From Plasmodiophora brassicae (taxonomy: Eukaryota), in assembly GCA_036867785.1 (NCBI GenBank), contig CP145419.1:744001-808000 (forward strand): a stretch of 64,000 bases of DNA, written 5' to 3'. Both the position numbers and the translations under genes were made by a program. The notes beneath the pieces were generated by a model that ran no database searches, was not told the origin of the DNA, and saw nothing but the letters and a program-made list of their open reading frames with translations. Positions within the stretch are counted from its first letter, which is position 1. The number at the start of each line of letters is the position of its first letter. This document shows, piece after piece, positions 8,919-64,000 of this stretch.

Positions 8919-8972
8919 CGTCGCGGCATGCCTCCACAGCCATGGTTTGATCAGTGTATACATACGCGAGGG

Positions 8973-27552: not shown

Positions 27553-28338
27553 GCTAGTCATGCTTTTTTCCCGGATGCGCGCTGGGTTATTTTAATGCCG
27601 ACGGCCATGTGACGACAGAAGCCAAAACTGTGTTCTACGAAGATTGAGACTTAATTATGTTAATTAGACTATATTAAGGAGAAGACATGATTAGGATACA
27701 CCACCACTGAAGACACCTGCAAGGAGGAGCATTTCTTTGAAGGAGGGGAATGTGCCGGCTCCAAGCTATAAGACAAGAATAGCTGTGATCCGGCTAGGCC
27801 GCCCTAAGAATGACGGACATGCACGGAGTGCGCACGGAGTCCGCACGGCGTCCGTGGGAGCTGCAGGTCGGGGACACAGACGATTATACTACACGGCTGA
27901 TATACCATCACCGTTGGGACGTCACAGACGTCCCTTGTGGTGGACGGGCAACAACCAATTGGTGCTCGCCCGGGCCTTCCGCGTCTGTCGAGGGGTGTTG
28001 TCCAGCGGATCGCTGCGGCCCTTTGCGGCGACCCTCGATCTGCCTGTCACCTGCAGGCAGACCCCGTCTGGCGAAGGCGGCGTAGAGCAGCAGCAGTAGT
28101 CGGAGACCATCAATGCGCCGCGCGTGTAGCTGATCGCAGCGACGTTCGCAGGAACGTGCCACATGCGCTTCCTCGAGTCGGCTTATCGCTGTACCGGCTG
28201 ACACGTGCTTCGCTGTTGTGCCCCGCAACGTCTGAGCCGCTGTCAGGTCGGGTCTGTCAGGTCGAGTCGCAATGACAATCAATCAGCGGCGTCACTTTGC
28301 GTGTGAACTGTGCCTCCAGATAGAGGTCCAGCGAGGCA

Positions 28339-31300
28339 TGTGACGTCCCAACGGTGATGGTATATCAGCCGTGTAGTATAATCGTCTGTGTCCCCGACCT
28401 GCAGCTCCCGCGGACGCCGTGCGGACTCCGTGCGCACTCCGTGCATGTCCGTCATTCTTAGGGCGGCCTAGCCGGATCACAGCTATTCTTGTCTTATAGC
28501 TTGGAGCCGGCACATTCCCCTCCTTCAACGAAATGCTCCTCCTTGCAGGTGTCTTCAGTGGTGGTGTATCCTAATCATGTCTTCTCCTTAATATAGTCTA
28601 ATTAACATAATTAAGTCTCAATCTTCGTAGAACACAGTTTTGGCTTCTGTCGTCACATGGCCGTCGGCATTAAAATAACCCAGCGCGCATCCGGGAAAAA
28701 AGCATGACTAGCCTACTGGACTCCTTCCGCCTTAAGTAACTCCTTAACCTCATCAGCAAGGTGATGTTTCTCCTTCCTCATCCTGGCGGCATGTGCCTTC
28801 ACCAGCTTCGGTACATCCATCGCCAACCTGCAGATTGGCTCCCATGAATCCTCCGCTTCAGAGAAACCCTTCCATCCGATCAACAATTCCAATTCCCCTG
28901 TCTCCGGACTGTGCCTGCAGTCCTTGAAGACTTCAATGGCGAAACGCTCATTGTCATAATCCATCTGTCGCTTCAGTTCCTCAGTGGCATTCACTTTGCC
29001 ATGTTCATAGAGGCGAACGCGGTCCCCGTGAACGGTTCGAGTGTCCGTCTCATTGAACATATTCCTCACCTCGTAGGTGTAGTTCTCGTGGCTATCAGTT
29101 ATTTGATATAGGCCCCGCCACTTCATAAAGAGCTTCTTGCCCGGAACCTTACCCGGTTCAGGCAATCCGATGAGTACATAGTCACCGATCTGAAAGTTCG
29201 GTGCAGTTGCTCGTCGGTACGCGTCGCTCCTCTTCCTGTGTACGGCTCGGATTTTCTTCGATTGCTGCACTGCTCCCTTGTGCATTTCATTCAGCGACGT
29301 CTGCAATTGCATGACTAGCTCCTGAATATGCTCCTTTGAGAGTGTAGCTTCCCCATACTTCTCATCCCCTGGCCTCTTGAACACTTGCTTCAGCGGGTTG
29401 TCTGGTTGACGTCCCATCATCACTGTCACTGGCGCATTCCCGTTGGTACGCGCCTGCGACCTGTGATTGATCGTGTGTTCAATGTTGTGGTTCAACCATG
29501 GCCAATCGTATTTGTCCCACTGCAATTCAGACAGAAGTGCTCTGACTAGTTGCAAGTAGTTCCTGTTGATCACCTCAATTGATCCATTACTGTAATGCCC
29601 ATAGGCAACAGTCGGGTGATGAGCAAATCCACATCGACGCGCCAGTTCCTTCACAACGTTTGCCAGAAAGCAAGACGCCATGTCTGACACCATCAACTCA
29701 AACGTTCCGAAGATAGCCCTCCATTCGAGCAGTGCCTCTACAGTGGTTTCCGCATTGGGTGTATGGTCAGGAGTAATCTTGACCATGCCAGACAGATCAT
29801 CCCTGATTATCAGGTTCCATTGCAGATCATGTCTTCCGCCCTTCTGAGCCGCCATCATGTATAGCCAATCCAAGTGAATCACCTGATTCGGCCTAACACC
29901 ATGAACAGCTGTTCCCAATGGCCTGGGAATCCTAACCCCGCCCCTTGTCGGTAGACAGTTCAAACACGCGTTGCAGAACGTCCTCATGTCCTCATCGCAG
30001 TGTGCCCAATGGCAGAACTCCCCCAACTTCCTCAACGAGGCCTTCAGTCCTAGATGCCCACTGTTTCCGCCCGCATGAGCAATAGCGCATAGCTGCAGCT
30101 TCAGCTCGTTGCATTCGTCTGGTATGATCACCTGTCCCTTCCCTGTGACGAAGAGATCATCACCATTCTTCGGTCGTTTCGTTCCTCTGAGCCATTTCCT
30201 CTGAGCCTTACGGATTTCGTCCACGGTCGGCCATTGGAATTCCTTCCTTTGTAACGGCCGTACCCGATATCCGTCCTCAATTTGAAGCGTTATCCTCCTG
30301 ATCGTGCGTACCTCTAGGTGCTGGTCATCAGGCCCACCGTCCGGTGCACCCCACCGCGTCATAAGATCCGACCACACATTGTCCTCCCCCGCAATGTGTT
30401 CAATGACGTAGTTGACCCTCTGTATGTCCAGTGCCCATCGTTGCAGTTTCTGCGCCGTTGGCTTTGACACGTCCGTTGGTGAGAATATCCTCACGAGATT
30501 CCTATGATCGGTAAACAAACGAAACTGCTCGTTGGTTGTAACGAGATAGTCCAGTTTGTCAATCCCATCCTTGATCGCGAACCCTTCCTTCTCCACCGTG
30601 GACCAGTTCCGCTCTGGGCCCGCGAACTTGTGTCCGACGAAACCCAGCGGTTCATGTCGCTGCCCATGCACTGGTTTACCCAAGTCCTCAGGCGGAATCT
30701 GTGTGACTACCGCCGCGCTGTTAACCTCATTTGCATCTGAGAATAGGCATTGGATCCGGTCCTTTCGCGGGTACGCTAGTTGGACCGTGTCCGCCACTGC
30801 CATCTTCAGTTTCTCGAATGCCAGCGCATGTTCGGGTGACCATCCATATTTGCACAATCGCACCCTCCTGGCAATGGCTTTCGTCCTGCCAGGTTGGTCC
30901 TTCATTGCATCCTCGTATATCCTCTGTAACAGGTGTACCTTCCTGTTGTACTCAGGGATGGACCTACTCATCCACTGAGTTGCCATAAGGAATTGTTGCA
31001 AGTCCCTTGCCGTCCTCGGCTGTGGTATCGCCATTAAAGCCTCAATCCTAGCAGGATCGTGCCTTACCCCTTCTGGCGTGAATATCCTTCCACAGAACCG
31101 AACCTCTGTTGTGAAGAGCTCACACTTCTCCACGTTGAACTTGATGCTGTGCCGTTCGGCTAGCATCAGAGTCCGTTCCAACGTTCGGAACCAATCATCC
31201 TCCCTTTGGGCATGCCCCATTAGATCATCGATCCATATGATTAGTTTGTGGAACATAAGTTCCCCGAACACCTCAAACATCCTCCCTTGATACTGAGGGG

Positions 31301-33549: not shown

Positions 33550-34070
33550 CGCTGGGAGACCTCCCGATTGACACTCAATCTGGAATCCATAATTGCCCGC
33601 TTACCTCGGTTCTGCAAGACCATCAGGCTGGGCATAAGCAGTGCCGACGTGAAGTTGAGGGACCGTTATCGGCATTTCGTGGCGGGTGGTGCATATCAGG
33701 CCAAAGCGATACCTGCTGCAGCGACTTCTTCGGAAGCGGATGTTCTCCCGAGGACGGCGGGCGAGGCAACACACGTTGGGCGGCAGCGTGTCGCGCCCGT
33801 CGACCTGCAACCTGGATGTGTTCCAAACGGTCATGACGTACCGGAGGGGCGCCCTCAGTGCAGGCGACGACGGCGCGCTCGGTCATGAGTCAGACCAACG
33901 TACCACGGCGCAGCAGCATCGATCGATCGGCAATGCCCTGATGGCAGGCTCCCTTGCCACAGCGACTGCCAGGCAGCACTCATCATATGCTGAAATAGGG
34001 ACCTCGTTACGACATTGTGGTGTGTCATCCCACCCAATCTGAGCATTCGGAGCCGCTGGTCCTGGATATA

Positions 34071-37411: not shown

Positions 37412-38288
37412 ATGGCGCTTTGGAAATCGTGCGCAGCATTGCTCTTCGCGGTCCTAGCCGGCGGCCGCTGCGCTCTCGGGCCCGATGACGACGTCGACCG
37501 CGACGCAGTCGAGACCTACTTTGACCTGAATATGGCGTGGAATGCTGATGACCACGACATGACGTCAAACGCGGTGCCCAACCACGCCCACGCTCCCTTT
37601 ATGGGCGCTGATGACGCCGATGGCGACGTCGACAGCGACGCAGTCAAGACCTACATTGACCTGAATATTGCCTGGTATGCTCATCGAGACCTAGACCACA
37701 GTATGACGTCAGACAAGGTGCCGGACCACGCCCATCGCTCCTTTTATTGCCGCTGCTGACATCTGGCAGGGAATGAACGACATCGGCAACCTGGGCGACG
37801 CCGGCGACGATGTGGCGATGTCAACGGCAGCGTCGAGCGTGGGACGTCGTCACATCGAGCGGAACGATGACGTACGCGCTGCAGTACCGGCCGGTACCTC
37901 TAACTGCGGAACGATGCATGATGCAGGGTCGCACGCCATAGATCACCAGCTCAGCGCCACGTCGGCCTGGGCTTCGGCGGGCGTCGCCAGCTACATGCAA
38001 CAGCAGCTAACGACGTCTAACGTTGACGCTGGGGAGACAACGTCCAGCTCGGTCCCGAAGTACATATACCCGGAAGTTGCCTGTACCCATTGCGGCAAGG
38101 AGGTCGCCAAACGCAGCCGACTTCGGCACCGGAAGTACCATTGCCCGGCTCGCAAGGTGCAGACCGCGTTGTGGTATTGCCAATGTTGCCCGTATCCAAG
38201 GTCATTCATCCGCCACGATTCCCTGCTCAAACACCGGAGGAAACGTCACACGAAAGACCAGGAACAGGCAAGCCCACCATTTCAGTGA
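37412..38288 (+). CDS. Secreted zinc-finger protein, copy 2, intact (~274 aa), effector-like
   Basis: Signal peptide MALWKSCAALLFAVLAGGRCALG; phase-0 intron 37718-37769; CTHC...H...C finger and CQCC...H...H finger with basic KHRRKRH. Confidence 0.82.
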
Positions 38289-38771
38289 AGGCACAGAATC
38301 GGAACTCGTCACAGGCTTCCTGGTCGTGCCTCGCCGGTTGGCACGGTTCGCACGGAAAGACATGCCCCATGGTCGGCAGGAGCCATAAGCAGGATCGTTG
38401 GGAACATCGATCACAGGGCGGACGCTGACGCGTACCGTCGTCACCACCAGACGGGATCTGCCTGCACGTACACGACAGGCAGGTCGAGCAGCGTCCAGAC
38501 AGGCGCAGGACTCGCGCCGTCGTGTCGGCAAAGGACTGCGACGCGCCTGGCACACGCTTCGACAGACGCGGGTTCGTTCCTTGGGCGAGCACCTGCATGT
38601 TGTCAGTCGACCGCAAGGGTCGCCTAGCTCGCCGATAACTGAGATTCAGTATGCCTGCTGCACATTCTCCCATATCACGAAGCCACGCGTTAGAGACCTA
38701 TCCACTTTAGAAGACGAGGCTGTGGATTGCATTCTCGCTATCCTGCCTATGTAATGTAGACTGTAAAATCG

Positions 38772-39173
38772 ATGGCTCTGGAGTGCATAGCAATCGTCGT
38801 CATCTGTTGCTGATCACGCACCGATCTGTCGTCAGCAGTGGCCGCCGCTTCGACGTTGCTCCGTCGTAGTACGATCCGGCGCACAAAGTCGCCGGAACGA
38901 TGATGCATGATCCCGCGTCGCACGGCACGACAACATGGGCGTCGGTGGACACCACCAAGTACATGCTTGATGTTGCTAGGCGGACGCGGGCTTCGTAACG
39001 CTCAACAGCAGCATTTGACGTGTACCGTTGATGCTGGGGCCATGTGTGTCCATTGCGGCCAGCGGTTATCCACCAAACATACCCGAGACCGGCACCAGAA
39101 ACACAGGGTGGCCAGGTTCCCCAAGTTCGCAGGGCACCTGTTCGCCCTACGCCCGGAGCACCGATACTCATAA
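38772..39173 (+). pseudogene. Secreted zinc-finger family, copy 3, fragment
   Basis: GTMMHDPASH...WAS...YM...QQQHLTCTVDAGAMCVHCGQRLSTKHTRDRH aligns with copies 1 and 2; stops and frameshifts. Confidence 0.65.
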
Positions 39174-39201
39174 TGGCGTCCTGCTCCATGTACGTATTGG
39201 T

Positions 39202-40891
39202 CTAGTCGGCATGCGGGTGGGGCCTCGTTGGTGGCAGGTGGTCCCCTTCCAGTCGCAGCGACCCGTCGTCGTTCACGATATGGTCCGGTGCCGGGACGCC
39301 CAGGTGCACGATGCGGTCGCCTTGCACGTTGGACGGGTTCGTCGACTTGCCAACGACGACGCCGTCCTCGGGCGCTTTCACCTTCGCCTGGACGAACCCT
39401 GAACAACAACAACAACAGCACGTTGCTTCGTGTGACACGTTCCTGTACGAAGCAGGCGGGCCACCGTTCCGCTACCGAATATGTCGACGACCGACGCGAT
39501 GCACTGGCCCTTGACGACGCGGTCGCCCACGTTCGGGTACACGTCGAGGATGCCGCCCTTCTGCTCGCCAGCACGCGATCAGCACACAGGCGAGAGGCGG
39601 CGTCGGGCGCCCATTACGATGGTGTGAATCCAGTACGAGTGCACGCAGGCGATCGTCGGCGGCATCGTCTCGTTCAGGTCGTGCATGTCGGGCGCGTCGA
39701 CCACGCCGAGGTGGTCCAGGACGCGGACAATGCCCGTGTACGTCCTGTGGATCAGGTCGCGGTCGAACGCCACACACTCGCCGATCTGGACCGCCAGGCA
39801 GTCGATCCCGTTCGCCGTGCACGCCGCCCGCAGCGTCCCGTCGCGATCCGGCCTGGCCACCTGCACCAGCACAGCCCGCCCCCGGTTGTCAGGCGATCTG
39901 TCGCTGTCGACCGACCCCCGCAACCGACATGGTGGACGATGATCTGCGGCTGGAGCCACCTGGCGATCCGGGCCACCGACCTGCTCCTCATGTCGCCCCG
40001 CACGTAGAAACTGTTGACGCGCGTTCAGACGCGAATCGGAGGCGAACGCGCGCCAGACGACCGACCTGTTGTCCCGGCCGAAGCTCGCCGTGTGCCTGTG
40101 TGTGTGGCGACACGCGTCAGTTCCGTTTGGGTCGTGCGCGCGCGCCTCCCGACAACGCAACGTACAGGTCCAGGATCAGGGTGCAATGCCGCAGGACGCG
40201 GTCGAACAGGTTCCTGGCGAACTGTCTGGCCCGGGTCTCCTTCGACGGGTCGCGGTCGTCACCGGGGAGGCCCGCGCCGAGGAAGCTCCGGTTCAGGTCG
40301 GCGCCGTCCACGTAGAACCGGGACGTCGTCTGGAACCCGTACTGTGCAAACGTCAGCGACGTCGGGTACGAAGAGGACGCCCAATCGTACCTGGTTGCAG
40401 CAGGGGATGGCCACTACGGAACCCTTCATGTCCATGACCAGGTGCGACAGCGAATGGAAGATCTGTGGGATCGGTGTCAGGGGGCGTGCCGGTGCAACGT
40501 GGCCGGTCGGTGGCTGCCGGCTGCCTTCTGGATGGTCGGGATGCCGGACGATTCGTTGCCATGGAGGGCGGCGGTCAGGCCGACGACGGTGCCGCCCGGC
40601 TCGGCGCCCTTGGCGAGCATCACCGGGACGCAGACGGGCGACCCGAACGAGTCGGACACGGTCTCGACCCACATGACGCTGATCTGGCCCTGTGGGGCAG
40701 CGTGAATCGGGCAGGCAGGGTCGCTCCTCGCGGGCAGGATACGCCACCGTTGGCCACTCGTCGATGACGAGCGACTGGACCGTCGGGATCGTGACGACCG
40801 GCTTCGAGCTGAAGTAGTACAGGATGTCGTCGATGGAGTGGTTACGAAGCAGGCCACGCGGCGATGGGCCGGCGTCGCGAGTCGTCGACAT
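39202..40891 (-). CDS. Succinylglutamate desuccinylase/aspartoacylase (M14-like) family protein, multi-exon
   Basis: TAALHGNE, AIPCCN-YGF, DLNRSF, DL|HTAS, GTLRAA; C-terminal barrel-sandwich domain (GDRVVKGQCIA...KAPEDGVVVG). Confidence 0.88.
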
Positions 40892-41001
40892 CGCTCCAGG
40901 GGCGTAGGTCCTGTGTGACAGCACCTGGGCCGTGATGGAGCCCGGCCCAGAGAGATCGATGACCCGCTTCGTTACGACGACGGCGGCCCCCGGGTGCGTT
41001 T

Positions 41002-41831
41002 TTACTTCTTACGATCCAGCTTCCATCTGTACACAGGGACGGCATCGGCGAGCGGTTCGCCAAACTCGTCGACCGGGGCGGGAAGTTTCACGCGGCGCCC
41101 CTTGCCGAGCAGGTTCTTCTGCACGCGTATTCGCGCGATCTCCTTCTCCATGACGGCGGCGCGGTCCAGGCGCGCGCTGAGCTCCTTGTACGCGCGCAGG
41201 CGCTCACGCTGGATGCCCTGCAGGTCGACGTTGGCCATCTGGACGCGGGCGGAACCTAGTTGCGACGCACGTGGGCGGTCGTACGCGCGACCAGCTAACC
41301 CGGGCAAGGTCCCTAACAGCGCCACTGTCAGTTTCTGACGTACCGAACGACACCGGATCAGCACAAACCGAAATGCGACGTGGCATCGAAGGACGTCAAC
41401 TGGGACGGCTTGTCGACGAAGATCGTGTGCGTGTTCTTCGTCGCTGGGGTGTCGCTGAGCAGATGCAAGCTGCTCTGAAGGTTGTCGATACGAATGCGCT
41501 CTTCCTGGGCCTTTGAGGTCAGGTAGGCCAGGTCCTGCTCGGCGAACCGGCGGAACGCTGTCGCAGAGCGTTGCTCTGGGTCGATCCGGCGCTTCGCGAC
41601 GTGCACACCCTGCTTCGTCCGCTCGTTGACCATGGCATGGTAGAATTCATCCGGGTTCTTCAACGCGGCGCTCTCCCGCATGGCTCGCAGACGGTCCTCC
41701 TTCTTGTGGAAATCCCGCGCACGCTTGACATAGTCCTTGTGCTTTTCGAGTTGGCCGAGCTTCGCACGTGCTGCCGGCTGCGATCGCTCGCGATGGATAC
41801 GCCGCTTGCCGATCTTCACGAAGCTCGACAT
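41002..41831 (-). CDS. UTP11: U3 snoRNA-associated protein 11
   Basis: HRERSQP...LGQLEKHKDYVKRARDFHKKE...KNPDEFYHAM; HTIFVD; KGRRVKL...VYRWKLDRKK. Confidence 0.95.
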
Positions 41832-41989
41832 GGTCGGCTCGAGGGTGGACGGCGCCTTGTGAAGCAAGTCCGTCGCGGACTCCGCCACGGACTTGACGGG
41901 TTAACCTCGACAACCGCGAGCTTGATCCTGTCGGCGTCGTGGCTCTCGTACAGTGTATTCAAGATGAGAAACGTCGCTTGCAGCTGCCC

Positions 41990-42424
41990 TCAGAGCGTTT
42001 GTGCACGTTGGCGAATGCGCCCTCTGTGGAAGATGCCATCGTAGATCACGACCGGTTTGTCGGAACCGACGATTTCGCTGACCTGCCCGGGGCCATCGAG
42101 GAGACCCTTCCGGAACTGGCCAGTCTGAACCAGGCGTCTGGTAGGATCGATGGCGCTGATGACGATCGTCTTGGTGCCGTGCCCGTCAGGCGCCCCGAAT
42201 TGCCAATCTCCGTAGTACGATATCCAGTCGCCGATCGCGCCTCCCCATCCGTGCGGAATGACGCCGCCGTGGTCGTCCCGAATCGCGAACCCTTCGTAGA
42301 CCAGGAACTGATTCGGGACCGCGAACTTGGCGTCGACGACGCCAAACACGTACTGCGTCCGGGGATGGAATTGTGAGGCCCTCACCACGGATGACAACCC
42401 CACAAGCAGGATCACGCGGAACAT
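41990..42424 (-). CDS. Small secreted MORN-repeat-like protein (144 aa)
   Basis: Signal peptide MFRVILLVGLSSVVRA; YEG...PHGWG, YYGDWQFGAPDGHG, TGQFRKGLLDGPG, YDGIFHRG. Confidence 0.72.
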   Translation of the reverse strand: MFRVILLVGLSSVVRASQFHPRTQYVFGVVDAKFAVPNQFLVYEGFAIRDDHGGVIPHGWGGAIGDWISYYGDWQFGAPDGHGTKTIVISAIDPTRRLVQTGQFRKGLLDGPGQVSEIVGSDKPVVIYDGIFHRGRIRQRAQTL

Positions 42425-44059: not shown

Positions 44060-44791
44060 TATAGATCTGTTATATAACGCTTGGCGGGGGGGTGGGCGTT
44101 ATATAACGTTATGTAACGTTATATAACGGTTATATAACGGTTATATAACGCCCTTTTTGGAGACGCTTGGAGACCACCCCGGACAGCCCGGACTGCGCGG
44201 AGAGGCCGTGGAAATCCGGCGGACTCGCATTGACATCTCGAAGTGCACTCTAAACAGCGTGCGAGACTTGGAGACGCGAATATTGAACGCCAGACTGCAG
44301 TGTGTTTCAATTCGTCCCAACTGAAGCGAAAGGTTCCGGACGTACGCCCGATAGACGGACTCCTCAAGCACCTCATCAGTTTCCACTCCTGGACAGAATC
44401 TCTGGTGGGATCTGCTGCCGATGGATGCGAAGATGACGACGTGATTGATCCTGTCGACGACTTCGAATTTTAGATGCCTGTGATCGCGAGGTCGACCGCG
44501 TAGTGAATCCAAACGAAATTGACGACCACGTGATCTACAGCGACTCTGATACCGAGGAAGTGGTCGTAGAATCAGGATGGGTGTTGTAGACCAGACCGCC
44601 AACTAGGCCACGAGAGCAGCTGCTCTCGTGGCCTAGTTGGCGGTCTGGTCTACAGTGTGAAACATGACCGGTACACTGTTATTCGTTATAAATGGAATAT
44701 AACGCGTTATATAACGCCTCTGTGACATAACGTTATATAACGCGTTATATAACGCCCGTTATATAACGCCAAAATAACTAACAGATCTATA
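44060..44791 (+). mobile_element. Non-autonomous hAT element/MITE (732 bp)
   Basis: 13-bp TIR TATAGATCTGTTA; 8-bp TSD GACGTCAC; many TTATATAAC subterminal repeats at both ends; dimerisation-domain remnant AERPW...HSKQRARL...N. Confidence 0.9.
44585..44654. repeat. 70-bp perfect palindrome with no spacer
   Basis: TGTAGACCAGACCGCCAACTAGGCCACGAGAGCAG|CTGCTCTCGTGGCCTAGTTGGCGGTCTGGTCTACA. Confidence 0.95.
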
Positions 44792-52201: not shown

Positions 52202-55200
52202 TGTGCTAACGCCGCCGCTGCCCACTACGGGGGCGGTCGGTCGCAAGAGTCGGCGCCTGGTGATATAACGAACTGATGTATTTGGACAGGATCGTCACAG
52301 CAAGGGCCGCTGCGGGGTCGAGTACGGTCATGATCATGTGACCGGGTGGCAGCAGCATCTGAGCAGCATCATCTGAGTACTGGTACTCTGGATGAACACT
52401 CCCCGTGTTAGAAATCTGCTAACAGTCGTGAGCAGAGCGGGTCTCCTTCGGCTTGTCGTTCGAGGAAGGCCCTGACGATATCAGGAACATCGGCCGCCAT
52501 GACCGAGTAAGGTTCCCATGAATTGTCGGTGGCATCGAATCCGATCCAGTTGATCAGTAGTTCAGTGTCACCTGACGTAGAGTTGACTCGAATGTCCTCG
52601 ACTGCGTTGACTTGGTAAGCCACGCCGGTGAGCGCGATGTTGTGCTTCAGGGAAGAGGTGACATTCAAGTGCGCATCTGCATAGAACATTAAGCGCTGGG
52701 CGTGTACATCTGAGATACGATCAGTCAAGAGATCTCGAACTCGATACACCCAGTCGTTGATGGTGTCGATAATCTGGGCAGGTCCAGTCCAGTTGTACTC
52801 GGACTTGGAGTGCTTGCCATGGTTGGCCACGAGAACATAGTCGCCCGTCGTGAAGTTGATCTCGCGAACATTGCGTCGGCGACGCCGGGCGCGTTGCTTG
52901 AGATCACGTAGATGGGTGCGTGTACGTGCCACTGCTTTGTGCATGTCCTCGAGAGAATCGATAAGTTCCGTCGTCATTTCCTTGAGACGGTCAGGGGTCA
53001 ACGGTACGTCGATAACCGCGTCGATGCGTTTGTTGAAGATAATCGAGATAGGTGTCGAGGGTGGCAAACCCGTAAACATCGTGACAGGCGCGTAGCCCAC
53101 ACTTGATCGAACAGTGTGATTTACCGTCATGTTGATCAGCGGAAGGACATACGGCCAATCCTGGAATGGAAGATTTAGCTCGGAGAGGAGGGACTTCAGC
53201 AGAAAGAGAAGCCGCTTGTTGACAACCTCAACCGTGCCGTTCGCCCAAGGTGTGTAGGCAGTTGTGAAATGATGGTTGCAGTGTAACCGGCTATTAAGCT
53301 CGGCGATAACCGCGTTTTTGAAGTGTGTGCCGCGGTCAGAGACATGTTGGAAAACAATGCCGAAACGTTTGAACCAATCCAGAAGAGATTCGGCGACAAC
53401 GCTGTGATCCGCGAATTGACAAGGAATTAACTCGACGAATGCCGTGGCGTCGTCCTTCAGAACCAGAACATAACGAAGTTGATGAGAATCGCCTGGACGA
53501 GGTTTGGATAAGAACAGAAAGTCATAGTGGATGACCTTATTGGGCTTGTCCGCATGCATAGCCGTGCCAAAAGGTCGGGGAATCATCGAATCTTTGTTGC
53601 GTAGGCAGTGTAAGCATTTGTCCACAAATGCACGAACAAAGGAATCCAGATCAGGCCACCAGAAGAGTTGTGCGATGCTCGAAATAGTCGATGCAGCAGG
53701 TTGATGACCAGACAGTCCCATATGTGAAATCACTGCGATGCGTAGCTGCAGTGCATGTGATGGTACCCAGAGTTGATTGTCTGGAGTACGCCAGCCAGAT
53801 TCCGGGCTAAGGTGGAGAGACATGTCCCCTTCGAGTTGGAGAATATCGGAAACGGCAGATAGGTCGTGTTGGCGAATGTAGTCGGTCTGAGCGTTACTAA
53901 TCTCGTCGACAGACGGCCAGATAAACTCATCGGTCATCTTGTAATCGTCGAAGTCAAGATTAATTGCCATATGACGAATAGAACGGAACGATGGAGGGGA
54001 AAATGAGGAGAGTGGTTGCAGGGCGACGCCCCACCGCGTGGCGAGGTCGGCCCAAACGTTGTCCTCCCCAGCAATGTGCTCAATGTGAAAATCTAGGTCG
54101 ATAATCTGAAGTCGCCAGCGCTCCAAGCGATCGCCGGTCGTCCGACTAATTCGTGCAACCGAGGCTGGGTTCAGAATGAAAACCAAATTACGGTGGTCTG
54201 TGAAGATTCGAAGTGCCAGCTTTGACATAGAGATGAAGTGTCTGAGGCGATAGCAGCCTTCAATGATGGCGTAGGCCTCCTTCTCAATGGTCGCCCACTT
54301 CAATTGAGAACCACGGAATGTCCCCGAGATGAACGACAAAGGTTCGTGGTGTTGCTCACCGTACGGGAGATCAATATCTTCCGGAGGGATCTGCGACAGG
54401 AAAACAGACCAGAAACGGTCACTCGCATCCGGAAAGAGACACATGATCCATTCGTCCTTGGTGTGCGCCAGCGTCATGGCCTCCGATAGTCGATGCTTCA
54501 GAGAATTGAAACTGGTGAGATGGTCAGTGGTCCAGCCGATGTCGGCTAAACGAACTCGACGTAGGTGTGATTTCTTCAGACTGCTGACAGAACGAGAAGC
54601 GGACAGAAGTAGATCCTGTAGCGGATGAACATGTGCCGCGAATTGAGGGATAACAGAACGGACCCAATTGAGGCCCGAGAGGAACTGTTGGAGATCAGCA
54701 GCCGTGATAGGAGTTGATAGATCGTGCAAGGCGTTGAGATACGAGCGATCGAACGACACTCCATCAGCGGATATAACGCGACCGCACCATGTCACTGAAG
54801 TGAGATATAACTGGCAGCGATCAGGGTTGAGTTTAACTCCAAACTCGTCGAAAGCGTTGAGAAGAGATTCGAGTGTGTCCATGTAGGCTCCGAATCCAGA
54901 TACGTAGCCGAGGATATCGTCGATCCAGAGTAGGGCGCAGATATATAGAAGTTTCCCCAACACCTGTTGCATTCCCGCCTGGAACGCAAACACGCAATCA
55001 GCGATTCCCTGGATGATGCGCCTGGGTGTAAACGTGGCGATGTGCGTCATGAACGAGCAGGCCTCCTGCGAATCAGGGTGCAACGGAAATTGCCAATAGC
55101 CTTTAAAGGCATCGAACAGCATGAAGATGGTCGCGGAACGTAGGTAGGTCAGGATGATGTCGATGTGAGGCATCGGCCATGCAATGCGTTCGGTCTGTTT

Positions 55201-57537
55201 GTTGACGGCTTCATTGATGTCGACGGTCAGCCGATGGCCGCGAACCTCCGTGTCCTTCTTGTCGACGACCAGACACGGCGACGCGTACCTGCTGTGCGGA
55301 TTGCGGTACACAAAATCGTTTTCCGCCAAGGTTCCTACGTGATCATCCATGAATTTTTGATGTTCGAGGGTATACCTTCGTGTTCGGCAACGAACAGGAC
55401 GAGCATCTGCTTTGAAGTGTAGTTTCAGTGGACTTACTTTCGCAGGTGGATCACGGCCAAGCTTCGTTCGCCATATGTCTTTGTGTCGATTGACAGTTGT
55501 GCGTAGACGCGGGACTTGATCGTTAGGGAAACCGGAGTCAGTTGCACGTTGTATCATCCGGTCTATTGCCCTGTCCACGTCTGTATCGGAGTGTTCTCCG
55601 ATTTCGACATCATAGTCGTCACCCGGATCATTGGTGTCCAATTGGGGCTCATGATCGCGAGTTGTTCCACTTACCTCCGGGTGTCTTACCGCTCTCATCG
55701 TGATCCCTTGACCACCTGGGGCGTGACGTTCCGGGGTCGGATCCGCTTCGATGATGATAGGACCATTTGCCTCGATTAACATCTCCTTCAGTTGTGTAGC
55801 TGGATTGATACCCAACGCGTCCAGTTCCGGGGCTCCTAAAAGGACAATGTCATCAGATAGGTCTTCGCGACATACGTTGATTTCCCGCCCGCGTAGATGT
55901 GCAGGTTTGCCATGCGAAGGTGGGACAATGGTGATGTCCACGATCGCTGTGGCGACAATTGTTGTCGTAGCCCCGATCGTTGCAAGTTTCGCCTCCGTTG
56001 GATGGTCGAACACTTTGACTGGGACATGCTGGATGGCTTGAATCCGTAGCAGTTGCGATTGCGAAATGACGGTCTTCGTCGCACCACTATCGGCTTCGAA
56101 TGGAAGGTCGAGCGAGTTCTGGAAGCGAAGTCTCATAGGGGACGGTGTTGACGGCGACGGCGGGCCCATGCGCTTTGCCGTGTCTGCGTTGCCCTTACTC
56201 TCCTCCTTCTCTTTGCGCTCTTTCTGGAACTTTTCAATGGCAGCTTTGCGTTCTCCTTGAGTTGCCTTCGGGCACACTTGGACCCAGTGCTGCTCCTTGC
56301 AGATTAGGCAACCTGCCTTTGGAGGATCCTTACCTTCGAAACGTTTTCGGATGTGCTCGGGGATGTCCCTCGATTCGTCTTTCGTTTGCGATGTGGACGA
56401 TTGAGCTGTCTTCAGTCCGATCGGATTTGTCGGATGCTTGCCGCCATTCCTATTCGGAGCAACAACGTCCTTACCTTTCTTACCTGCAGGTGGGGACATG
56501 GTCTGCGCTGGAGACTTCTTCTTCTCAGCTTGCAGCCGGAAGTGTTTGTCCTGCTCTTTGGCAAGACGGTCGACGAGGTCGAAGAATTTGAGCTCGTCCT
56601 TCTCAGCGTCCCTGCACCCTCCGAACTCGATCGCGCGTTCGACTAGAACCGCAAGGTCAGTGGGACGGATACCTCCGCGTAATACCTTGATCTTGCGCTT
56701 GGTTCCTTTCGTTCCTTTGGCGTATGTGTCTTGTAGCCCATAGTCGTCGATTAGCTCATCGAACTTGGCGAAGAAAGACGTGACACGTTCCTCAATACTC
56801 TTGATTGACAGGTTCATGACCACTGTCTTCGTGAGAAGCGCCTTGATGTCTGTCGAACTCTCGACATCAGCCTCCCTGCGTTGGACTGACCTCAAGTAGC
56901 TCATGATGTCGCCATCCGTGATCGTGCTGGCGGGTTGACGTAGGCGATATTTCGACATCCCTCTGAGGACGTCCTCGGTAATGCATGACTTCACCGTTGG
57001 CGGATGAATATCCTCCTTGTAGATCAGTCGGCGCTCGTTAACGATCTCGACGTGTTTCCTATATTTCTTGAGGAAATCGTTAATTCCGTCCTTGGCCGTA
57101 AGGCTCAGGGTACGTAGGATGGGCGGTTTCAAAGGCATAAAGATCGGGCTCTTACCGTGCAGGTTTGTTGACTGAAGCCCTCGATCGATTTCGTCATCTG
57201 TCGACGATTCATGCTCCTTGGCCTCGGCGTCGGAGTTGGTCCTGGCGTCGTCCTCCATCTGTAGACGAACGGGCGCTCTGCGGCCACCTCCTGCCATTAA
57301 GTGAGTTCGTTTGCTTGGGGCTCTTTGCGCAAGAAGCTTCTGTGCTAACGCCGCCGCTGCCCACTACGGGGGCGGTCGGTCGCAAGAGTCGGCGCCTGGT
57401 GATATAACGAACTGATGTATTTGGACAGGATCGTCACAGCAAGGGCCGCTGCGGGGTCGAGTACGGTCATGATCATGTGACCGGGTGGCAGCAGCATCTG
57501 AGCAGCATCATCTGAGTACTGGTACTCTGGATGAACA
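52202..57537 (-). mobile_element. Family B copy 2, intact
   Basis: LTRs at 57341-57537 and 52202-52398; 5-bp TSD GCCTC. Confidence 0.97.
52408..57297 (-). CDS. Family B Gag-Pol polyprotein, 1629 aa
   Basis: Differs from 20853-25742 by only a few residues. Confidence 0.96.
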   Translation of the reverse strand: MAGGGRRAPVRLQMEDDARTNSDAEAKEHESSTDDEIDRGLQSTNLHGKSPIFMPLKPPILRTLSLTAKDGINDFLKKYRKHVEIVNERRLIYKEDIHPPTVKSCITEDVLRGMSKYRLRQPASTITDGDIMSYLRSVQRREADVESSTDIKALLTKTVVMNLSIKSIEERVTSFFAKFDELIDDYGLQDTYAKGTKGTKRKIKVLRGGIRPTDLAVLVERAIEFGGCRDAEKDELKFFDLVDRLAKEQDKHFRLQAEKKKSPAQTMSPPAGKKGKDVVAPNRNGGKHPTNPIGLKTAQSSTSQTKDESRDIPEHIRKRFEGKDPPKAGCLICKEQHWVQVCPKATQGERKAAIEKFQKERKEKEESKGNADTAKRMGPPSPSTPSPMRLRFQNSLDLPFEADSGATKTVISQSQLLRIQAIQHVPVKVFDHPTEAKLATIGATTTIVATAIVDITIVPPSHGKPAHLRGREINVCREDLSDDIVLLGAPELDALGINPATQLKEMLIEANGPIIIEADPTPERHAPGGQGITMRAVRHPEVSGTTRDHEPQLDTNDPGDDYDVEIGEHSDTDVDRAIDRMIQRATDSGFPNDQVPRLRTTVNRHKDIWRTKLGRDPPAKVSPLKLHFKADARPVRCRTRRYTLEHQKFMDDHVGTLAENDFVYRNPHSRYASPCLVVDKKDTEVRGHRLTVDINEAVNKQTERIAWPMPHIDIILTYLRSATIFMLFDAFKGYWQFPLHPDSQEACSFMTHIATFTPRRIIQGIADCVFAFQAGMQQVLGKLLYICALLWIDDILGYVSGFGAYMDTLESLLNAFDEFGVKLNPDRCQLYLTSVTWCGRVISADGVSFDRSYLNALHDLSTPITAADLQQFLSGLNWVRSVIPQFAAHVHPLQDLLLSASRSVSSLKKSHLRRVRLADIGWTTDHLTSFNSLKHRLSEAMTLAHTKDEWIMCLFPDASDRFWSVFLSQIPPEDIDLPYGEQHHEPLSFISGTFRGSQLKWATIEKEAYAIIEGCYRLRHFISMSKLALRIFTDHRNLVFILNPASVARISRTTGDRLERWRLQIIDLDFHIEHIAGEDNVWADLATRWGVALQPLSSFSPPSFRSIRHMAINLDFDDYKMTDEFIWPSVDEISNAQTDYIRQHDLSAVSDILQLEGDMSLHLSPESGWRTPDNQLWVPSHALQLRIAVISHMGLSGHQPAASTISSIAQLFWWPDLDSFVRAFVDKCLHCLRNKDSMIPRPFGTAMHADKPNKVIHYDFLFLSKPRPGDSHQLRYVLVLKDDATAFVELIPCQFADHSVVAESLLDWFKRFGIVFQHVSDRGTHFKNAVIAELNSRLHCNHHFTTAYTPWANGTVEVVNKRLLFLLKSLLSELNLPFQDWPYVLPLINMTVNHTVRSSVGYAPVTMFTGLPPSTPISIIFNKRIDAVIDVPLTPDRLKEMTTELIDSLEDMHKAVARTRTHLRDLKQRARRRRRNVREINFTTGDYVLVANHGKHSKSEYNWTGPAQIIDTINDWVYRVRDLLTDRISDVHAQRLMFYADAHLNVTSSLKHNIALTGVAYQVNAVEDIRVNSTSGDTELLINWIGFDATDNSWEPYSVMAADVPDIVRAFLERQAEGDPLCSRLLADF

Positions 57538-58292
57538 GCCTCTATGAACATGGCAAAGTGAATGCCACTGAGGAACTGAAGCGACAGATGGATTATGACA
57601 ATGAGCGTTTCGCCATTGAAGTCTTCAAGGACTGCAGGCACAGTCCGGAGACAGGGGAATTGGAATTGTTGATCGGATGGAAGGGTTTCTCTGAAGCGGA
57701 GGATTCATGGGAGCCAATCTGCAGGTTGGCGATGGATGTACCGAAGCTGGTGAAGGCACATGCCGCCAGGATGAGGAAGGAGAAACATCACCTTGCTGAT
57801 GAGGTTAAGGAGTTACTTAAGGCGGAAGGAGTCCAGTAGGCTAGTCATGCTTTTTTCCCGGATGCGCGCTGGGTTATTTTAATGCCGACGGCCATGTGAC
57901 GACAGAAGCCAAAACTGTGTTCTACGAAGATTGAGACTTAATTATGTTAATTAGACTATATTAAGGAGAAGACATGATTAGGATACACCACCACTGAAGA
58001 CACCTGCAAGGAGGAGCATTTCGTTGAAGGAGGGGAATGTGCCGGCTCCAAGCTATAAGACAAGAATAGCTCATGTGATCCGGCTAGGCCGCCCTAAGAA
58101 TGACGGACATGCACGGAGTGCGCACGGAGTCCGCACGGCGTCCGTGGGAGCTGCAGGTCGGGGACACAGTAGTATATACACCTAACTGTATAACGTAACT
58201 ATGGAGAACCAGGGAGGGCCCGGCGCCACGGCCTTTCAGGTACCGCTATAAATAGCCCCCCCACACACCCCTCCGTCCGCCTCGCCCCTGCC

Positions 58293-58723
58293 AATTTCAC
58301 TGTCATATGAAACGGACGAATTTCACTGTCATATGAAACGGACGAATTTCACTGTCATATGAAACGGACGAATTTCACGAATTTCACTGTCATATGAAAC
58401 GGACGAATTTCACTGTCATATGAAACGGACGAATTTCACTGTCATATGAAACGGACGAATTTCACTGTCATATGAAACGGACGAATGTCACTGTCATATG
58501 AAACGGACGATATTAGCAAATTCAATGTCATATAAAACGGACGATATATCCTCGATCGGGACGCCTCCACACATGAAACGGACGAATTTCACTGTCATAT
58601 GAAACGGACGAATTTCACTGTCATATGAACGGACGAATTTCACTGTCATATGAAACGGACGATATTGGCAAATTCAATGTCATATAAAACGGACGATATA
58701 TCCTCGATCGGGGCGCCTCCACA
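58293..58723 (+). repeat. 26-bp tandem array (AATTTCACTGTCATATGAAACGGACG) with higher-order duplication
   Basis: Units at 58293, 58319, 58345, 58380, 58406 and onward; about 13 full or variant copies; tail ATATATCCTCGATCGGG..GCCTCCACAC occurs twice. Confidence 0.95.
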
Positions 58724-58963
58724 CGCAAGCACCCACCGAGAGGGCGGCTCGCCCCAACGACGCTAGAGCGAGGCGGGCACAATGTTGCAGGAACCGATCC
58801 GCGCAGCGAATCGGTAACGACATATCACCCGTGTCGCCAGTGATCACACTGCTGCAGGCTACGAGGTGACGTCACGCGTCCTTGCCAGTCGAATACTTTG
58901 TGACACAGTGCGTACCAGCGTCGACTGTGGTGACGCGTCATAACTCTAACGGGCCGACTAACG

Positions 58964-61704
58964 ATGGCATTCGCTTCCTCCAGCAAGTCTGCGCTCAAGA
59001 AGATGTGCACTGTACGCCGTCTGGTGTCGTCTAGGGCGCGCAAGGACGTCGACGAGTTGAGGACACTTCTGGGCAACTACGTCGAAGAGCACCTGTCACA
59101 TCCCGGGATACAGGTGGACGTTCTGCAGACATCCACCGGGTCGACAAGACGAACGACAGGAGAGTTGCTGCCGTCGCCGTATCAACCCGATCGTACGACG
59201 CCTGTTGACGTGGCCGCGTTGGGCGACGATGGCACCGCTGTCCTTGACGACCACGATACTGGAGACGGCAATGGGGTTTCCGAGTCGACGTCGTATAGGG
59301 CGGTGAAGATCACTGCGAACGAAGATCAAACAGACGATGAGATCTCGTTGCGTCCCGGTGACGTGGTACTCGTCCATGTTCGCCTTCTCGTCCGAGCTGC
59401 ACTGCCGGTGCCAATTCGTCGGGTGATCCAGGATCAGACCATGGGCAGAAGTAAGCGCAATCAGATCGGGTGCGCCCTTGTGCACTTCAACCGCTTCCTC
59501 GACGATCCTGCCATGCGGCAGGTTATCGCCGCACGGCGATGGGAGCAGTTGACGGTGGACGAGGCCACGCCCGATGTGTTCGAGCAGTTCGTCACATTTT
59601 TGATCGAGAGGTCGCCCTCGATTCGAAAATGGGAGACCGCCAGCGCCTACGTGGCCCAGATGAGGGACGCGTTGGCGCAACGGTTCAAGGCGGACAACCC
59701 GGAACTTGCCATCTTGGATGACAAGTGGTACAAGGCCGTCCGGTCGACAGTGAAGAAGGCGTTTGTGGAGCGGGCCAATGTCACTGGGTCCGCTTTCATC
59801 GACCGGGCGCCTGCCCTGCAGAAGGAGGGCGTCCAGCAGGTTGGGCACGCCCTGTTCTTGGAGATGGGAGAACCGGCCACCAGTGCGGCTGCTGCCCATG
59901 ACAGGTAATCTCGGCCTTGTGTGTGAGTATACCGCCTTTGACAATGTGTCGCGGTCAGATTCCTAATTGCGTTCCAGTGGGCCATCCTGGGCCGTGCAAG
60001 CGATGCAGCCCTGATGCGGAAATCAGACCTGCAGTGGGACGCCGGCTCTGGAGCTGCCCTTGCAGGGGTCAGCCGTCAGAAAACTACCAACGAAGCGCCG
60101 CTGCTGATTTACTGCGATCGGAACGATTATCGTGCCGATATGTTCCACGCACTGGGCAGCCTGGTCGCGACAGTCAGCGATCAAAGCCAGGTCGTCTTGT
60201 TGTTGCTTCGCCCGTCCGTTACGTCCTCTGATTGTCGTTCTTTGCAGGAACTGTTTCCACGGATAAGGGGCACCAGCAGCGCGTCAGCGTATCTGAACCG
60301 AATGTTCGATACGCTGGTTGACCGATACGAGCACCTCGTGTCGGTCTCGCCTAGCCTGGGCGACCTCGGTGGTCACGTGCATCGACGAACCAGGTCCCAC
60401 TCTCTGCGTCGTGGTGCTACCACGGCCGCTGCTGCTGCTGATGGGGTAACACTCAGCAGTATTATTTATCGCGGCGGGTGGAACCTGGAATCGATGTGCA
60501 CCGCCTTGGAGTACATCGTGGGCGGGGGTGCCGGTGACGCTAGGGTCGGTCGCGTCCTGGCTGGTTGGCCTAGCGGTTCCGGTGGGCAACCGATGTCTTT
60601 CGCCTTCGTGAAAGACAATACTCACGAGAAAGCACGTGTCGACGCTTGGGTTCGCGCCGTTTTCGGTTCGAACTGGCATCTATGGTCCAGGACGTCCCCT
60701 GGACTGCTGACAGTTTGCGCAGCCAGCATGCTCATGTACCTGCCGCAGACGTTGAAGGGAGCCGGTGACTCTCTCGAACAACCCGTTCACCGTAAGTGCC
60801 TGTTGAGATTGGGCGTCTCTATTCGTAATCAATTGTTGGTTCAGCTTTGCATAAGACGATGAGCCGTGCTTGCGATGAGATCGGCTTGCCGAGATCGACT
60901 CTGATGGGATGGTCAGGGGAGATCCTCGTCGAGTTCCTCAAAGCGAACATCACCGCGATCCCGGGCAGCATGCTGCGAGACGCACAGCCGGAGGTGGCGG
61001 CCCGACTGACCGTGGACGTCTTCTCGCTGACGGACACGGTCGAGCGCCTATGCCACACGGTTCTCCAGCTTCATGACACCGTGCTGGACCTGCAGCGAGA
61101 GAACCGCCAACAGGCCCTCGCAATGGCTCAAACGCAGAGCCAGATTATGGAGGTCCTGATGTCTGGCAGGCCTCCTGCAGAGGCGGAATCGACTTCCGAT
61201 ATCGCCGCTGGCCGGGGTCCAGCAAGGTCGTCGCCTGATGGTCCCGAGCGCGAGCTTCGCCATCCCGCAGCCGAGCGGACGTTGGACGACGCCGTGCCCA
61301 AGCTCACCGATATGAGCGTCAAGACTGCGTTCCACGCCTGGCATGCTGCTGGGCTTAAGACGCTCAGGTACGACGCCGCACGGGTCAAGAGCCAGCTGAA
61401 GCAGCTGGTGGAGGAGTATTGCCCTTTGTTCCTGGACCCTGATGATGACGTGGAAGCCCAGAATGGAGAAACGGAAGCGGCATACGACCGTCGTATTCAC
61501 GATATGGCTGCCAAGGTGGAGTCGCGAATCATCAGGTTCTTGGGCGACTGGTACCGCCCACATGTGGCCCGTACGACCAACTCAACCAGGAAGCCGCGTA
61601 AGCTGACAAGGACGGCTGTGCGGGGCACTTTAAACGAGCTCCGGAATGCCTGCAAAGGACTTTCCAAGGAAGACGTTGCGGCGAAATTGTCTTTACTAAA
61701 CTAG
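58964..61704 (+). CDS. Crypton-type tyrosine recombinase, spliced
   Basis: Introns 59905-59958, 60191-60247 and 60792-60844 give one frame; catalytic R (LGRASD), K (RQKT), HxxR (SHSLRRG), W (RGGW), Y (LEYI), then RVLAGW; start uncertain. Confidence 0.88.
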
Positions 61705-61741
61705 GTCGCGAGATTGCACATCGTGCTGCATGTATTGAGTC

Positions 61742-63693
61742 TTAATTGCATGCCGGGCAATGAGTAGCCGTGGAAGCGCCAGAGAAGTACGCGCTCAGGG
61801 CCCATGCGAAGCAGGATGAGTGATGATTTGAACCAATCTGAGCCAAACGTTGCATCTCGTTGTAGTCAGAGATGTCATCATCGACCCTGTCCTTGCCAAT
61901 CTTCAGAATTTCAGCCGCCAAGTCGTCCAAATTCAGGTCACGTTTCAGAATGCGGATCACCTCACAGCGCCCGCCGAAACGCGACGCTCGTTGGGATTCG
62001 TGCTCGTCAAGTTCGCGAACATCGGCAATTAGTCGAACCTGCTCCAAGTTTGTTGCGGTGAACGTGTTGTTGTTCGATTGGATACTCTGACGGAGGACCT
62101 GCGAAGTGCCGGGATTCCCATTATCCAGTTTCGTCCAGACACGTCTCGAAGGCCGCACGCGAAGAAATCCGGTCTCGACCATGTCGATAATGCCTTTGGC
62201 GTACATCCAAGTTAGAATAGACAGCTTGGTGGTTCCATTCCGATCCGAGACATCGACATAACCTACACCGCCATGGTCACCTGCAGCACAAATGTCGCGT
62301 ACATGATCCTTCACAACGGTTTCTTCCAAATAGCATCTCTGGATGTTCGACAGCTGCTGCGCATCGATCTCCTTGCAGCAAATAGTGACGCACTGGCCAT
62401 TGCTGTCGGGACGCCGAGCCGCACGCCCTGCCTGCTGAACGAAATCCATTGGACTGCTTGGTAGGCCGTATTGGACGATCAGTCCTACGTCCATGCGGTT
62501 GATACCCAAGGAGAAAGCAACCGTGGCTACCATAATGGCGGACTGGTGCTGCTCCCAGCCTAGCTGCTGACGTTCGCGTACAGGTTCAGGCATACCTGGA
62601 AGAAGATATTAGACATCGTAGCTCTCTGTTGGTAACTATTGTTTTCGTACCACCACGATACTTGAAGACCGGCCGAGACGGAGGAACATGTTTGACCAAC
62701 AGATCATGCACCTTATCAGCGTGTTCTCGCCGCAACACGTAGACAATGGCCGCATTGCCATCATCGCAACGAGAGATGATATTAATAAGCATCGCGTCTG
62801 CGTTCGCCATGGCCTCGCAGTGCACAAACCGATGCCCGACATTGGTGCGTGCAGACGGGGCCCAAACGACATTGTTTGCATCGATGTCGAAATGCATCAG
62901 CATGCGGGGTAAACGACGCTTTGACAGAGTAGCCGTCAATACCAGAATAGGGCAGAGCAATCGCACAGCGATCAGAGCAGCGCGATGATAGTCTGCGCGG
63001 AACCGTTCTCCCCATTGTATAGCGGTGTCCCCTTCGTCGAAAGTAACGAACGAAACATGTGTGAGAGTCGATGGACACACTTGGAATAGTCGTACAAACA
63101 TTTCGGGACTGATGAACAGGAGTTTCAGTCCCTTCCCGAAACGGGAATATATTGCCTGTCGTTCAGTCGGCGTTCTGGTACCTGTTCAACATGCGATTTA
63201 GAGTCGAAACGACATAGTGCATTGACAATGCACAACCGTTGACAATGTCTACTGTGCCCTTGAAGTATTTACAGGCCTGTTGATACTGATCAAGTATCAA
63301 GCTGTTCAACGGTGAAACGACGATGCCAGTGCCTGGAAGCTCCTTGGCAGCCGCCTGGTACACAAGCGACTTCCCGGAACCTGTTGGGCTAACGAACAAG
63401 GTTGAACGGCCGTCCACGATTGACGTTATTGCTTCACGTTGACCAGGTCGGAGAGAACGAATCCCCATTGCACCCATGAGCTCCTCGGTCCCTGAAGTCT
63501 TCCGCCGAGCCATCTCCCGCCGAGCCATCTTATGGCATGATGCGTTCTCGTTCGGGACCATGAGACGTTTCATGGTACGTGCAAGCAGAAGACAGACTAC
63601 AACGCCCTCGCGTTCGACGACGACCGGCGCTTGGTTGCAATTTGGCGCGATGGCCGGAGAATCTTTGAACTGCGCAAATAGAATCCTCTCCAT
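61742..63693 (-). CDS. RecQ-family SF2 DNA helicase, spliced
   Basis: LRPGQ, PTGSGKS, SPLNSL, ISPE, DEGD, QWGERFRADY, LTAT, YRGGM, ATVAFSLGIN, QQAGRAAR; C-terminal C...CPAC; introns 63182-63236 and 62596-62650 restore the frame. Confidence 0.9.
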
Positions 63694-63743
63694 TGTATGT
63701 AGCTACCTATGTAGCTACATCGTGAAATCTATGCTCCTCCACT

Positions 63744-63932
63744 GGAATGTGGGAGGGCGCTGCCTCCTGGAAGGCGGGACCAAATGCCGTTTCTATGCAG
63801 GAATTTGTGTTAGAAATCGCTCACAGCTTCTAGAGCGGAATGTGGGAGCGCGCCGCCTTCCTGGAAGGAGAGGCCAGATGCCGTTTCTATGCAGGAATTT
63901 GTGTTAGAAATCGCTAGCAGCTTCTAGAGCGG
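63744..63932 (+). repeat. Two-copy direct repeat of about 93 bp upstream of the helicase
   Basis: GGAATGTGGGAG...ATGCCGTTTCTATGCAGGAATTTGTGTTAGAAATCGCT...CAGCTTCTAGAGCGG at 63744 and 63837. Confidence 0.9.
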
Positions 63933-64000
63933 CGCCTGGCGGCGGGCCCTTCATGGCTGCGGGCTCCCGCCGGGTCGCCCTCCGCCTGCGTTCCCACTAT

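Follow-up and report, generated by a model that had tools for sequence, protein, structure and literature searches.

The right-hand end of the DNA analyzed here carries a tyrosine-recombinase gene next to a RecQ-like helicase gene, and we consider this pair as a candidate mobile element of the Crypton type. The whole stretch, called the window, comprises 64,000 nt of Plasmodiophora brassicae DNA (CP145419.1, positions 744,001-808,000), and all coordinates below are positions within it. The host is a plasmodiophorid (Rhizaria), and the genes of the window are identical to deposited P. brassicae proteins. Within 58170-64000, the recombinase gene on the plus strand and the helicase gene on the minus strand converge, and both are the sole genes of an island of ~6.3 kb between repeats (Table 1). 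To this region (56500-64000), Logan contigs from four public runs were aligned: the DNA runs X1 and X7, and the runs X16 and X18, whose kind is unstated and whose contigs are spliced and RNA-like.

Both genes are transcribed and spliced, since spliced contigs of two runs confirm all five introns. The three recombinase introns are of the GT..AG type (54, 57, and 53 nt) and each of their joints was seen in X16 as well as in X18, while the joints of the two helicase introns (55 nt each) were seen in X16. The resulting recombinase model of 858 aa includes, letter for letter, the deposited P. brassicae protein P0001, a 699-aa 'Core-binding (CB) domain-containing protein'; the recombinase reading frame with the intron read through is 93% identical. 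In one annotation set, the recombinase is PBRA_009687 and the helicase PBRA_009686. Some deposited models differ from the spliced contigs, which show neither the extra intron of P0152 at 60575-60631 (a skip of 19 aa) nor the extra, frame-changing 3' intron that P0175 and P0176 carry in the helicase at 62029-62266; P0176 is correct through residue 439. The RNA-like X16 contigs of the recombinase and helicase genes terminate at 61701 and 61715. Thus the first-pass annotation, made from the letters of the window, was right in describing two spliced genes that face each other with their stop codons in close vicinity.

Table 1. Features at the right-hand end of the window.
Feature	Position	Strand	Evidence
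3' part of a long terminal repeat (LTR) retrotransposon (chromodomain end of pol and terminal repeat), cut 46 bp short of its usual end	57538-58169	+	99.4% identity to 27251-27879 (+) and 29014-28386 (-)
AT-rich stretch of 30 bp between the cut repeat and TATGG, origin unassigned	58170-58199		without match elsewhere in the window
TATGG and the adjoining GC-rich left arm of an imperfect inverted repeat	58200-58225	+	sequence read; gapped alignment
Two-block array of 26-bp tandem repeats (unit AATTTCACTGTCATATGAAACGGACG) that precedes the recombinase gene	58293-58724	+	Tandem Repeats Finder, periods 26/52/152
Tyrosine-recombinase gene, 858 aa; exons 58964-59904, 59959-60190, 60248-60791, 60845-61704	58964-61704	+	spliced contigs X16, X18
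Spacer between the convergent stop codons, 37 bp	61705-61741		open reading frame (ORF) ends
RecQ-like helicase gene, 613 aa; exons 63693-63237, 63181-62651, 62595-61742 (boundaries +/-3)	61742-63693	-	intron joints in X16
Two 94-bp tandem units within a longer period that starts at ~63730 and probably runs past the window	63744-63932	+	Tandem Repeats Finder, 90% matches
Imperfect inverted repeat, right arm, with ...CACTAT as the last letters of the window	63968-64000	-	sequence read; gapped alignment

The recombinase itself is unrecognized by Pfam, and a Pfam search with all exon pieces and deposited proteins of 58964-63693 delivered helicase domains and a weak integrase signal only. Its predicted structure is more telling: an AlphaFold model based on a 30-sequence alignment reached a mean pLDDT (predicted local distance difference test) of 84.6, and with this model Foldseek ranked Cre-lox complexes first in the PDB (E ~1e-4, target template modelling score 0.57-0.60), followed by XerH, the Tn1549 integrase, Flp, and the lambda integrase. 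The family profile likewise matches Cre (E 5e-7). The full catalytic set claimed beforehand, R-K-HxxR-W-Y, is present as R167, K196, H283/R286, W310, and Y321 in P0001 numbering. In the same alignment, every sequence has R167 and K196, and conservation is 90% or higher for R286, W310, and Y321; H283, which is outside the listed conserved columns, was read from P0001 itself, where it completes HxxR. The spacing of the catalytic residues is nearly that of Cre. As judged from the model, the protein is a Cre-fold tyrosine recombinase that has kept its predicted catalytic residues, with a Cre-like core followed by a C-terminal extension of ~350 aa. Cre of phage P1 is its best structural match over both domains. 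In contrast to Cre, with which it shares 16-19% identity, it has ~160 extra N-terminal and ~350 extra C-terminal residues and is encoded by a eukaryotic gene with introns.

To which family the recombinase belongs is indicated by its relatives. An exhaustive HMMER search found 308 of them at E<=1e-3, with 35% identity for the best non-self match. Of 28 non-self clusters looked up, an organism name was attached to six, and all six are from oomycetes: Aphanomyces euteiches (a 6-member cluster), Phytophthora infestans (a 7-member cluster with three neighbouring locus tags), [Pythium] brassicae (three clusters), and Globisporangium. In BLASTP alignments, the similarity runs past the catalytic domain, up to P0001 residue 573 for Aphanomyces and 465 for P. 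infestans. Among 30 aligned family members, Pfam detected Phage_integrase in eight and GCR1_C, DUF3504, or a reverse transcriptase (RT) domain in none, and no fused accessory domain such as a peptidase or helicase was found by Pfam in 10 long relatives. A metagenome scan with the relative P0158 retrieved two short contigs only, L001 (1,740 bp) and L002 (1,634 bp), which are of no use for judging gene neighbourhoods.

In the available text of Kojima and Jurka 2011, CryptonS elements are described from oomycete and diatom hosts, with a conserved C-terminal region and without GCR1_C; their ends are direct repeats of 5-6 bp, TATGG in most, and some elements also encode a C48 peptidase in an additional gene (PMC3212892). 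The P. brassicae recombinase agrees with this description in its full catalytic set, the conserved C-terminal extension, the lack of GCR1_C, a low copy number, and its oomycete kin; in addition, TATGG stands by the left arm, and a second gene is possible in some CryptonS as well (PMC3212892). It differs from it in the plasmodiophorid host, in a second gene that encodes a RecQ-like helicase instead of a C48/Ulp1 peptidase, and in the long tandem-repeat arrays inside both ends, while the terminal direct repeats are candidates only (PMC3212892). Since the only relatives with organism names are multi-copy oomycete proteins that share the C-terminal extension, we consider it reasonable to call the recombinase CryptonS-like, as a likeness in sequence to a group compared by its published description and not as membership. 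The first-pass annotation had used the same term, and the oomycete relatives, the C-terminal region, and the lack of GCR1_C bear it out; its reference to stramenopile CryptonS does not extend to the host, which belongs to the Rhizaria.

The second gene had been read as a RecQ gene, which agrees with profile and PDB searches. The two best profile hits of P0176 are recQ (173 bits, E 7.6e-51) and recQ_fam TIGR00614 (158.5 bits, E 2.5e-46). The latter score stays below the curated cut-off of 219.8 bits, as the match is confined to positions 7-329 of the 470 in the model. In the PDB, the matches are RecQ, BLM, RECQ4/5/1, and WRN at E 5e-34 to 1e-16, and all are of the RecQ type down to 5e-16, while the first non-RecQ helicase follows at E 4.7e-11; its look-alikes in the Atlas are RecQ clusters as well. 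Motif II reads DEGD in place of DEAH, and the RecQ aromatic loop is kept (QWGERFRADY). For P0176 and for the tail supported by RNA-like contigs (61745-62266), Pfam matched neither RecQ_Zn_bind nor RQC nor HRDC, and the C-terminal tail of ~175 aa matched no Pfam family. Judged by these matches, the protein is a divergent RecQ-family core helicase without a detected Zn, RQC, or HRDC domain. Just upstream of its start codon, at 63697-63720, lies a near-perfect duplicated palindromic motif (ATGTAGCTAC ... ATGTAGCTACAT), and one X1 contig variant has a 72-bp deletion (63664 to 63737) adjoining it.

As in Cryptons, neither an RT nor any other transposase was detected by Pfam in 58964-63693. For lack of an RT we rejected a DIRS/Ngaro retroelement, and a Starship-type or virus-like element was rejected as well, as there are no other genes and the island is small. 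Academ transposons, which carry a RecQ helicase according to the available text of the source (PMC3627910), were considered as well. They resemble the P. brassicae pair as DNA transposons with a RecQ-family helicase for a non-transposase gene. However, they employ a DDE transposase, while the island encodes a tyrosine recombinase (PMC3627910). Pfam found no DDE domain in the island and Academ was rejected.

Our preferred interpretation, with a probability of about 0.5, is that the island represents a low-copy, transcribed DNA element of the Crypton type with a CryptonS-like, Cre-like recombinase of 858 aa, and that the helicase probably belongs to the same ~6.3-kb unit. For the helicase being cargo of the recombinase element, we see about even odds. 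One should also consider that the recombinase and the upstream 26-bp repeats alone form a Crypton-like element or its remnant, while the helicase is an independent, fast-evolving host gene or another relic and any duplication of the pair was segmental. We regard this as possible, if somewhat unlikely. The island between the repeats comprises just the two genes, the helicase-bearing contig of one deposited assembly is 6,377 bp long, and the depth of the helicase follows that of the window-form recombinase in both DNA runs, all of which speaks against an independent helicase. In X1, the helicase unitig has a depth of 510 and the window-form recombinase of 466, compared to 269 and 240 for variants of a truncated recombinase copy (~2:1); in X7, the values are 91 and 82 compared to 80 and 84 (~1:1). 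Consistent with joint duplication, the accession numbers of the two proteins in another annotation set are adjacent in two instances, XXQ30264/30265 and XXQ36680/36681, which lie on two contigs. In favor of an independent helicase, in contrast, the two genes differ in their level of expression in X16 (contig depth 32.5 for the helicase, 8.4-8.8 for the recombinase), and the CryptonS described in the available text carry at most a C48 peptidase (PMC3212892).

Repetitive families of RecQ-like helicases at fungal telomeres provide a further comparison (PMC4522978). Like the P. brassicae helicase, they are fast-evolving and stand outside the canonical RecQ set, and they are repetitive. Unlike them, the gene described here has a single form, a non-fungal host, and a partner recombinase, and lies in a window in which none of the telomere motifs tried occurs (PMC4522978). 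These motifs were TTAGGG, TTTAGGG, TTAGG, and TTGGGG in at least 3 units.

Several results weigh against a mobile two-gene unit, and those on pairing are as follows. The pairing of recombinase and helicase is known from one case, and the XXQ pairs possibly reflect two assemblies instead of two loci. Apart from the one described, a single recombinase copy was seen, and it is truncated and has no helicase. This copy, P0151 (PBRA_007550), lies outside the window and has just one XXQ number; 317 of 350 residues (91%) agree with the recombinase, and divergence sets in right after HSLRRG, just past the HxxR motif. In terms of the window it spans roughly 58279 to 60418 and became visible in both DNA runs as variant contigs and a 125-bp skip, while no variant contigs of the helicase were seen. 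At least 20 recombinase relatives of at least 600 aa sit on contigs of only 2.4-4.5 kb. Since such contigs leave little room for a helicase gene of 1.95 kb, the helicase is not a trait of the family, and the contigs fit single-gene elements. Relatives of the helicase outside P. brassicae were not found in word-based protein searches, where exon 3 matched nothing among longer proteins and exon 2 only the P. brassicae protein itself (both weak negatives), nor were there any for exon 3 in the metagenome scan or for P0176 in a scan of viral contigs. A scan of viral contigs with P0018 gave no match either. The first of these results also counts, weakly, against an independent host gene, since the word-limited searches gave no orthologue in other organisms. 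Finally, the depths cited above do not represent copy numbers, according to the tool's own caveat. Apart from the truncated copy, there may be another partial one of the recombinase, as indicated by X1 variant contigs at 60984 and 61087.

The left edge belongs to the contrary evidence as well. The LTR terminal repeat stops at 58169, while five of five other copies in the window run 46 bases further (ACGATTATAC...GGGACGTCAC) and then end. The first-pass annotation had the pair begin just after the point where the LTR is cut off. The cut is real, yet the discontinuity at 58169/58170 lies 30 bp before the TATGG at 58200, and the bases between (58170-58199) are unrelated. It had further concluded that the pair arrived recently by insertion into the LTR. 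After a simple insertion the 46-bp tail of the LTR would be expected on the other side, and it is absent from 58170-64000; consequently, a recent insertion is not established, and if the island did insert into the repeat, its right end must be located beyond the window. Furthermore, TATGG is not enriched, with five TATGG and one CCATA in 57801-64000 (6.2 kb). One X1 contig joins at 58166 from another left flank and a second genomic context joins at 58279; both flanks are absent from the window. As a separate observation, a short array of TTATATAACG-like units follows right after a complete retrotransposon end at 44060-44130 and loosely resembles 58170-58199 (CTGTATAACGTAAC).

Such a left edge would also suit a locus in which neither gene is mobile now, namely host DNA, possibly with a domesticated recombinase, that forms an island in an LTR nest, the cut at 58169 being due to a deletion or a nested retrotransposon insertion. 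The window is dense in near-identical retrotransposon copies, the 30 bp between the LTR cut and TATGG fit no insertion model, and both genes are expressed with ordinary short introns. Absence polymorphism was not seen either: the stretch was present, whole or in part, in 20 of the 24 public runs listed, from 8 studies. Nevertheless, we consider an immobile pair improbable. The recombinase has kept every catalytic residue, a truncated paralogue and further variant pieces exist, the relatives are multi-copy in oomycetes, and the depth ratio differs between the runs.

At the right edge, the first-pass annotation had quoted the letters of both ends correctly and proposed that the final ...CTAT of the window starts a second TATGG, which would delimit a ~5.8-kb element between 58200 and ~64002. 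The contigs argue against this. Loose-end contigs of both DNA runs read CACTATGCTCCTCCACT ahead of the 94-bp repeat unit, loose ends are found at 63837, and a back-joint leads from 63998 to 63732 in one contig of X1. As the window ends with ...CCCACTAT, these loose ends make GCTCCTCCACTGG... (GCTCC...) the simplest continuation, that is, TATGC and a further repeat period. This contig evidence is indirect and suggests that the right edge reads TATGC, not TATGG, and continues into further repeat, which again weighs against the preferred reading. The right end as proposed is thus probably incorrect in its details, and with the break at 58169/58170 the ~5.8-kb element stays a proposal. In agreement with a longer array, the contig depth summed over 63779-64000 exceeds the depth of the helicase contig ~5x in X1 as well as in X7. 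Moreover, shared ends of the unit rest on no second full copy with readable flanks.

Since the right boundary is not within the window and the repeat array runs past it, the two genes might be no more than the left-hand portion of a larger integrated element extending well beyond it. However, to judge from the 6,377-bp helicase contig, the unique sequence stops ~0.3-0.5 kb beyond the window if repeats were not collapsed, and we thus hold a larger element to be very unlikely.

The ends are related to each other, as had been proposed. A gapped global alignment of 58200-58225 with the reverse complement of 63968-64000 scored 10, compared to a mean of -4.0 (standard deviation 2.9) for shuffled sequences. 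The same score was reached by none of 2000 shuffles, by 1 of 4000 random 33-mers of the window, and by 4 of 2000 GC-rich 33-mers. Thus, the imperfect inverted repeat stands above its controls, with the restriction that the alignment needs several gaps and that the test was run after the pairing had been proposed. A second inverted copy of the left GC-rich motif, in another register and the best match of the ungapped style, is weaker: 58209-58232 against 63934-63957 scored 26, while the maximum among 300 shuffles was 25. The left arm adjoins TATGG, and the right one ...TAT at the edge of the window. In a circle formed by joining the ends, the arms would surround a TATG(G) core in the layout of a tyrosine-recombinase site, which we find an attractive inference.

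Under the reading as a Crypton-type unit, the recombinase would act by site-specific recombination, excising or integrating the unit at a short core beside the GC-rich inverted arms, the TATGG at 58200 being the candidate core. The helicase might serve as an accessory factor that unwinds or replicates the excised intermediate, or it might drive branch migration. A bolder version, which we put forward tentatively and with more doubt than confidence, envisions a Crypton lineage with its own RecQ-like helicase that still moves as a ~6.3-kb two-gene unit, is present in one copy in some isolates and in two in others, and recombines at a TATG(G/C) core with GC-rich inverted arms on either side, while the helicase aids replicative gain of copies. 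The behaviour of Cryptons in the available text of the sources would fit: a short terminal motif recombines with a near-identical target, and both excision and copy gain occur (PMC9977147, PMC3212892). For CryptonF-1_cRei, which is active in Chlamydomonas, terminal CACCG is described to recombine with CAYCG targets, and excision is clean, yet copies are gained by a mechanism called complex (PMC9977147). A TATGG/TATGC pair in P. brassicae would parallel this CACCG/CAYCG pair (PMC9977147). In contrast, CryptonF-1_cRei belongs to another Crypton group with GCR1_C, consists of one gene, and has been seen in action directly (PMC9977147).

The literature searched contained no description of a Crypton with a helicase among the matches listed, supplementary element lists being outside the search, in line with the first-pass annotation, which knew of no CryptonS with RecQ cargo. 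No literature on a tyrosine recombinase in P. brassicae was found either, and the one match on its transposable elements and Cryptons is unrelated to judge by the title. Among the DNA transposons of eukaryotes, Cryptons are to our knowledge the class that is understood least. According to the available text of one study, their activity has been observed only in Chlamydomonas (PMC9977147). If the proposed unit holds true, no DNA transposon of the tyrosine-recombinase kind would have had a dedicated helicase before it, and no Crypton-type element would have been described earlier from Rhizaria. The unit would point to a replicative or junction-processing step and provide a two-protein system that can be tested on plasmid substrates. 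Should the helicase be a mere neighbour, a new host record for a known family and corrected gene models would result. The oomycete-type Crypton recombinase family is now placed in a plasmodiophorid. Plasmodiophorids and oomycetes share plant roots as a habitat, and together with the oomycete-type recombinase this raises the question of horizontal transfer.

Besides the gene pair, other parts of the window show features of their own. Two GC-rich regions (0.61-0.64), 8000-14000 and 38000-42000, contain long overlapping ORFs on both strands, and a Pfam match was obtained for none of seven ORFs tested. The region 17184-57363 is a nest of young Ty3/gypsy-type chromodomain retrotransposons. Three of their gag-pol frames are open over 1650-1651 aa (20787-25742 on the plus strand, 28713-33665 and 52408-57363 on the minus strand), and shorter ones comprise 1152 and 1424 aa. 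This family may be active, because the terminal parts are 99-100% identical between copies. Two of the retrotransposon 3' ends form an inverted pair, in which 27251-27879 (+) faces 29014-28386 (-) with ~0.5 kb separating the ends.

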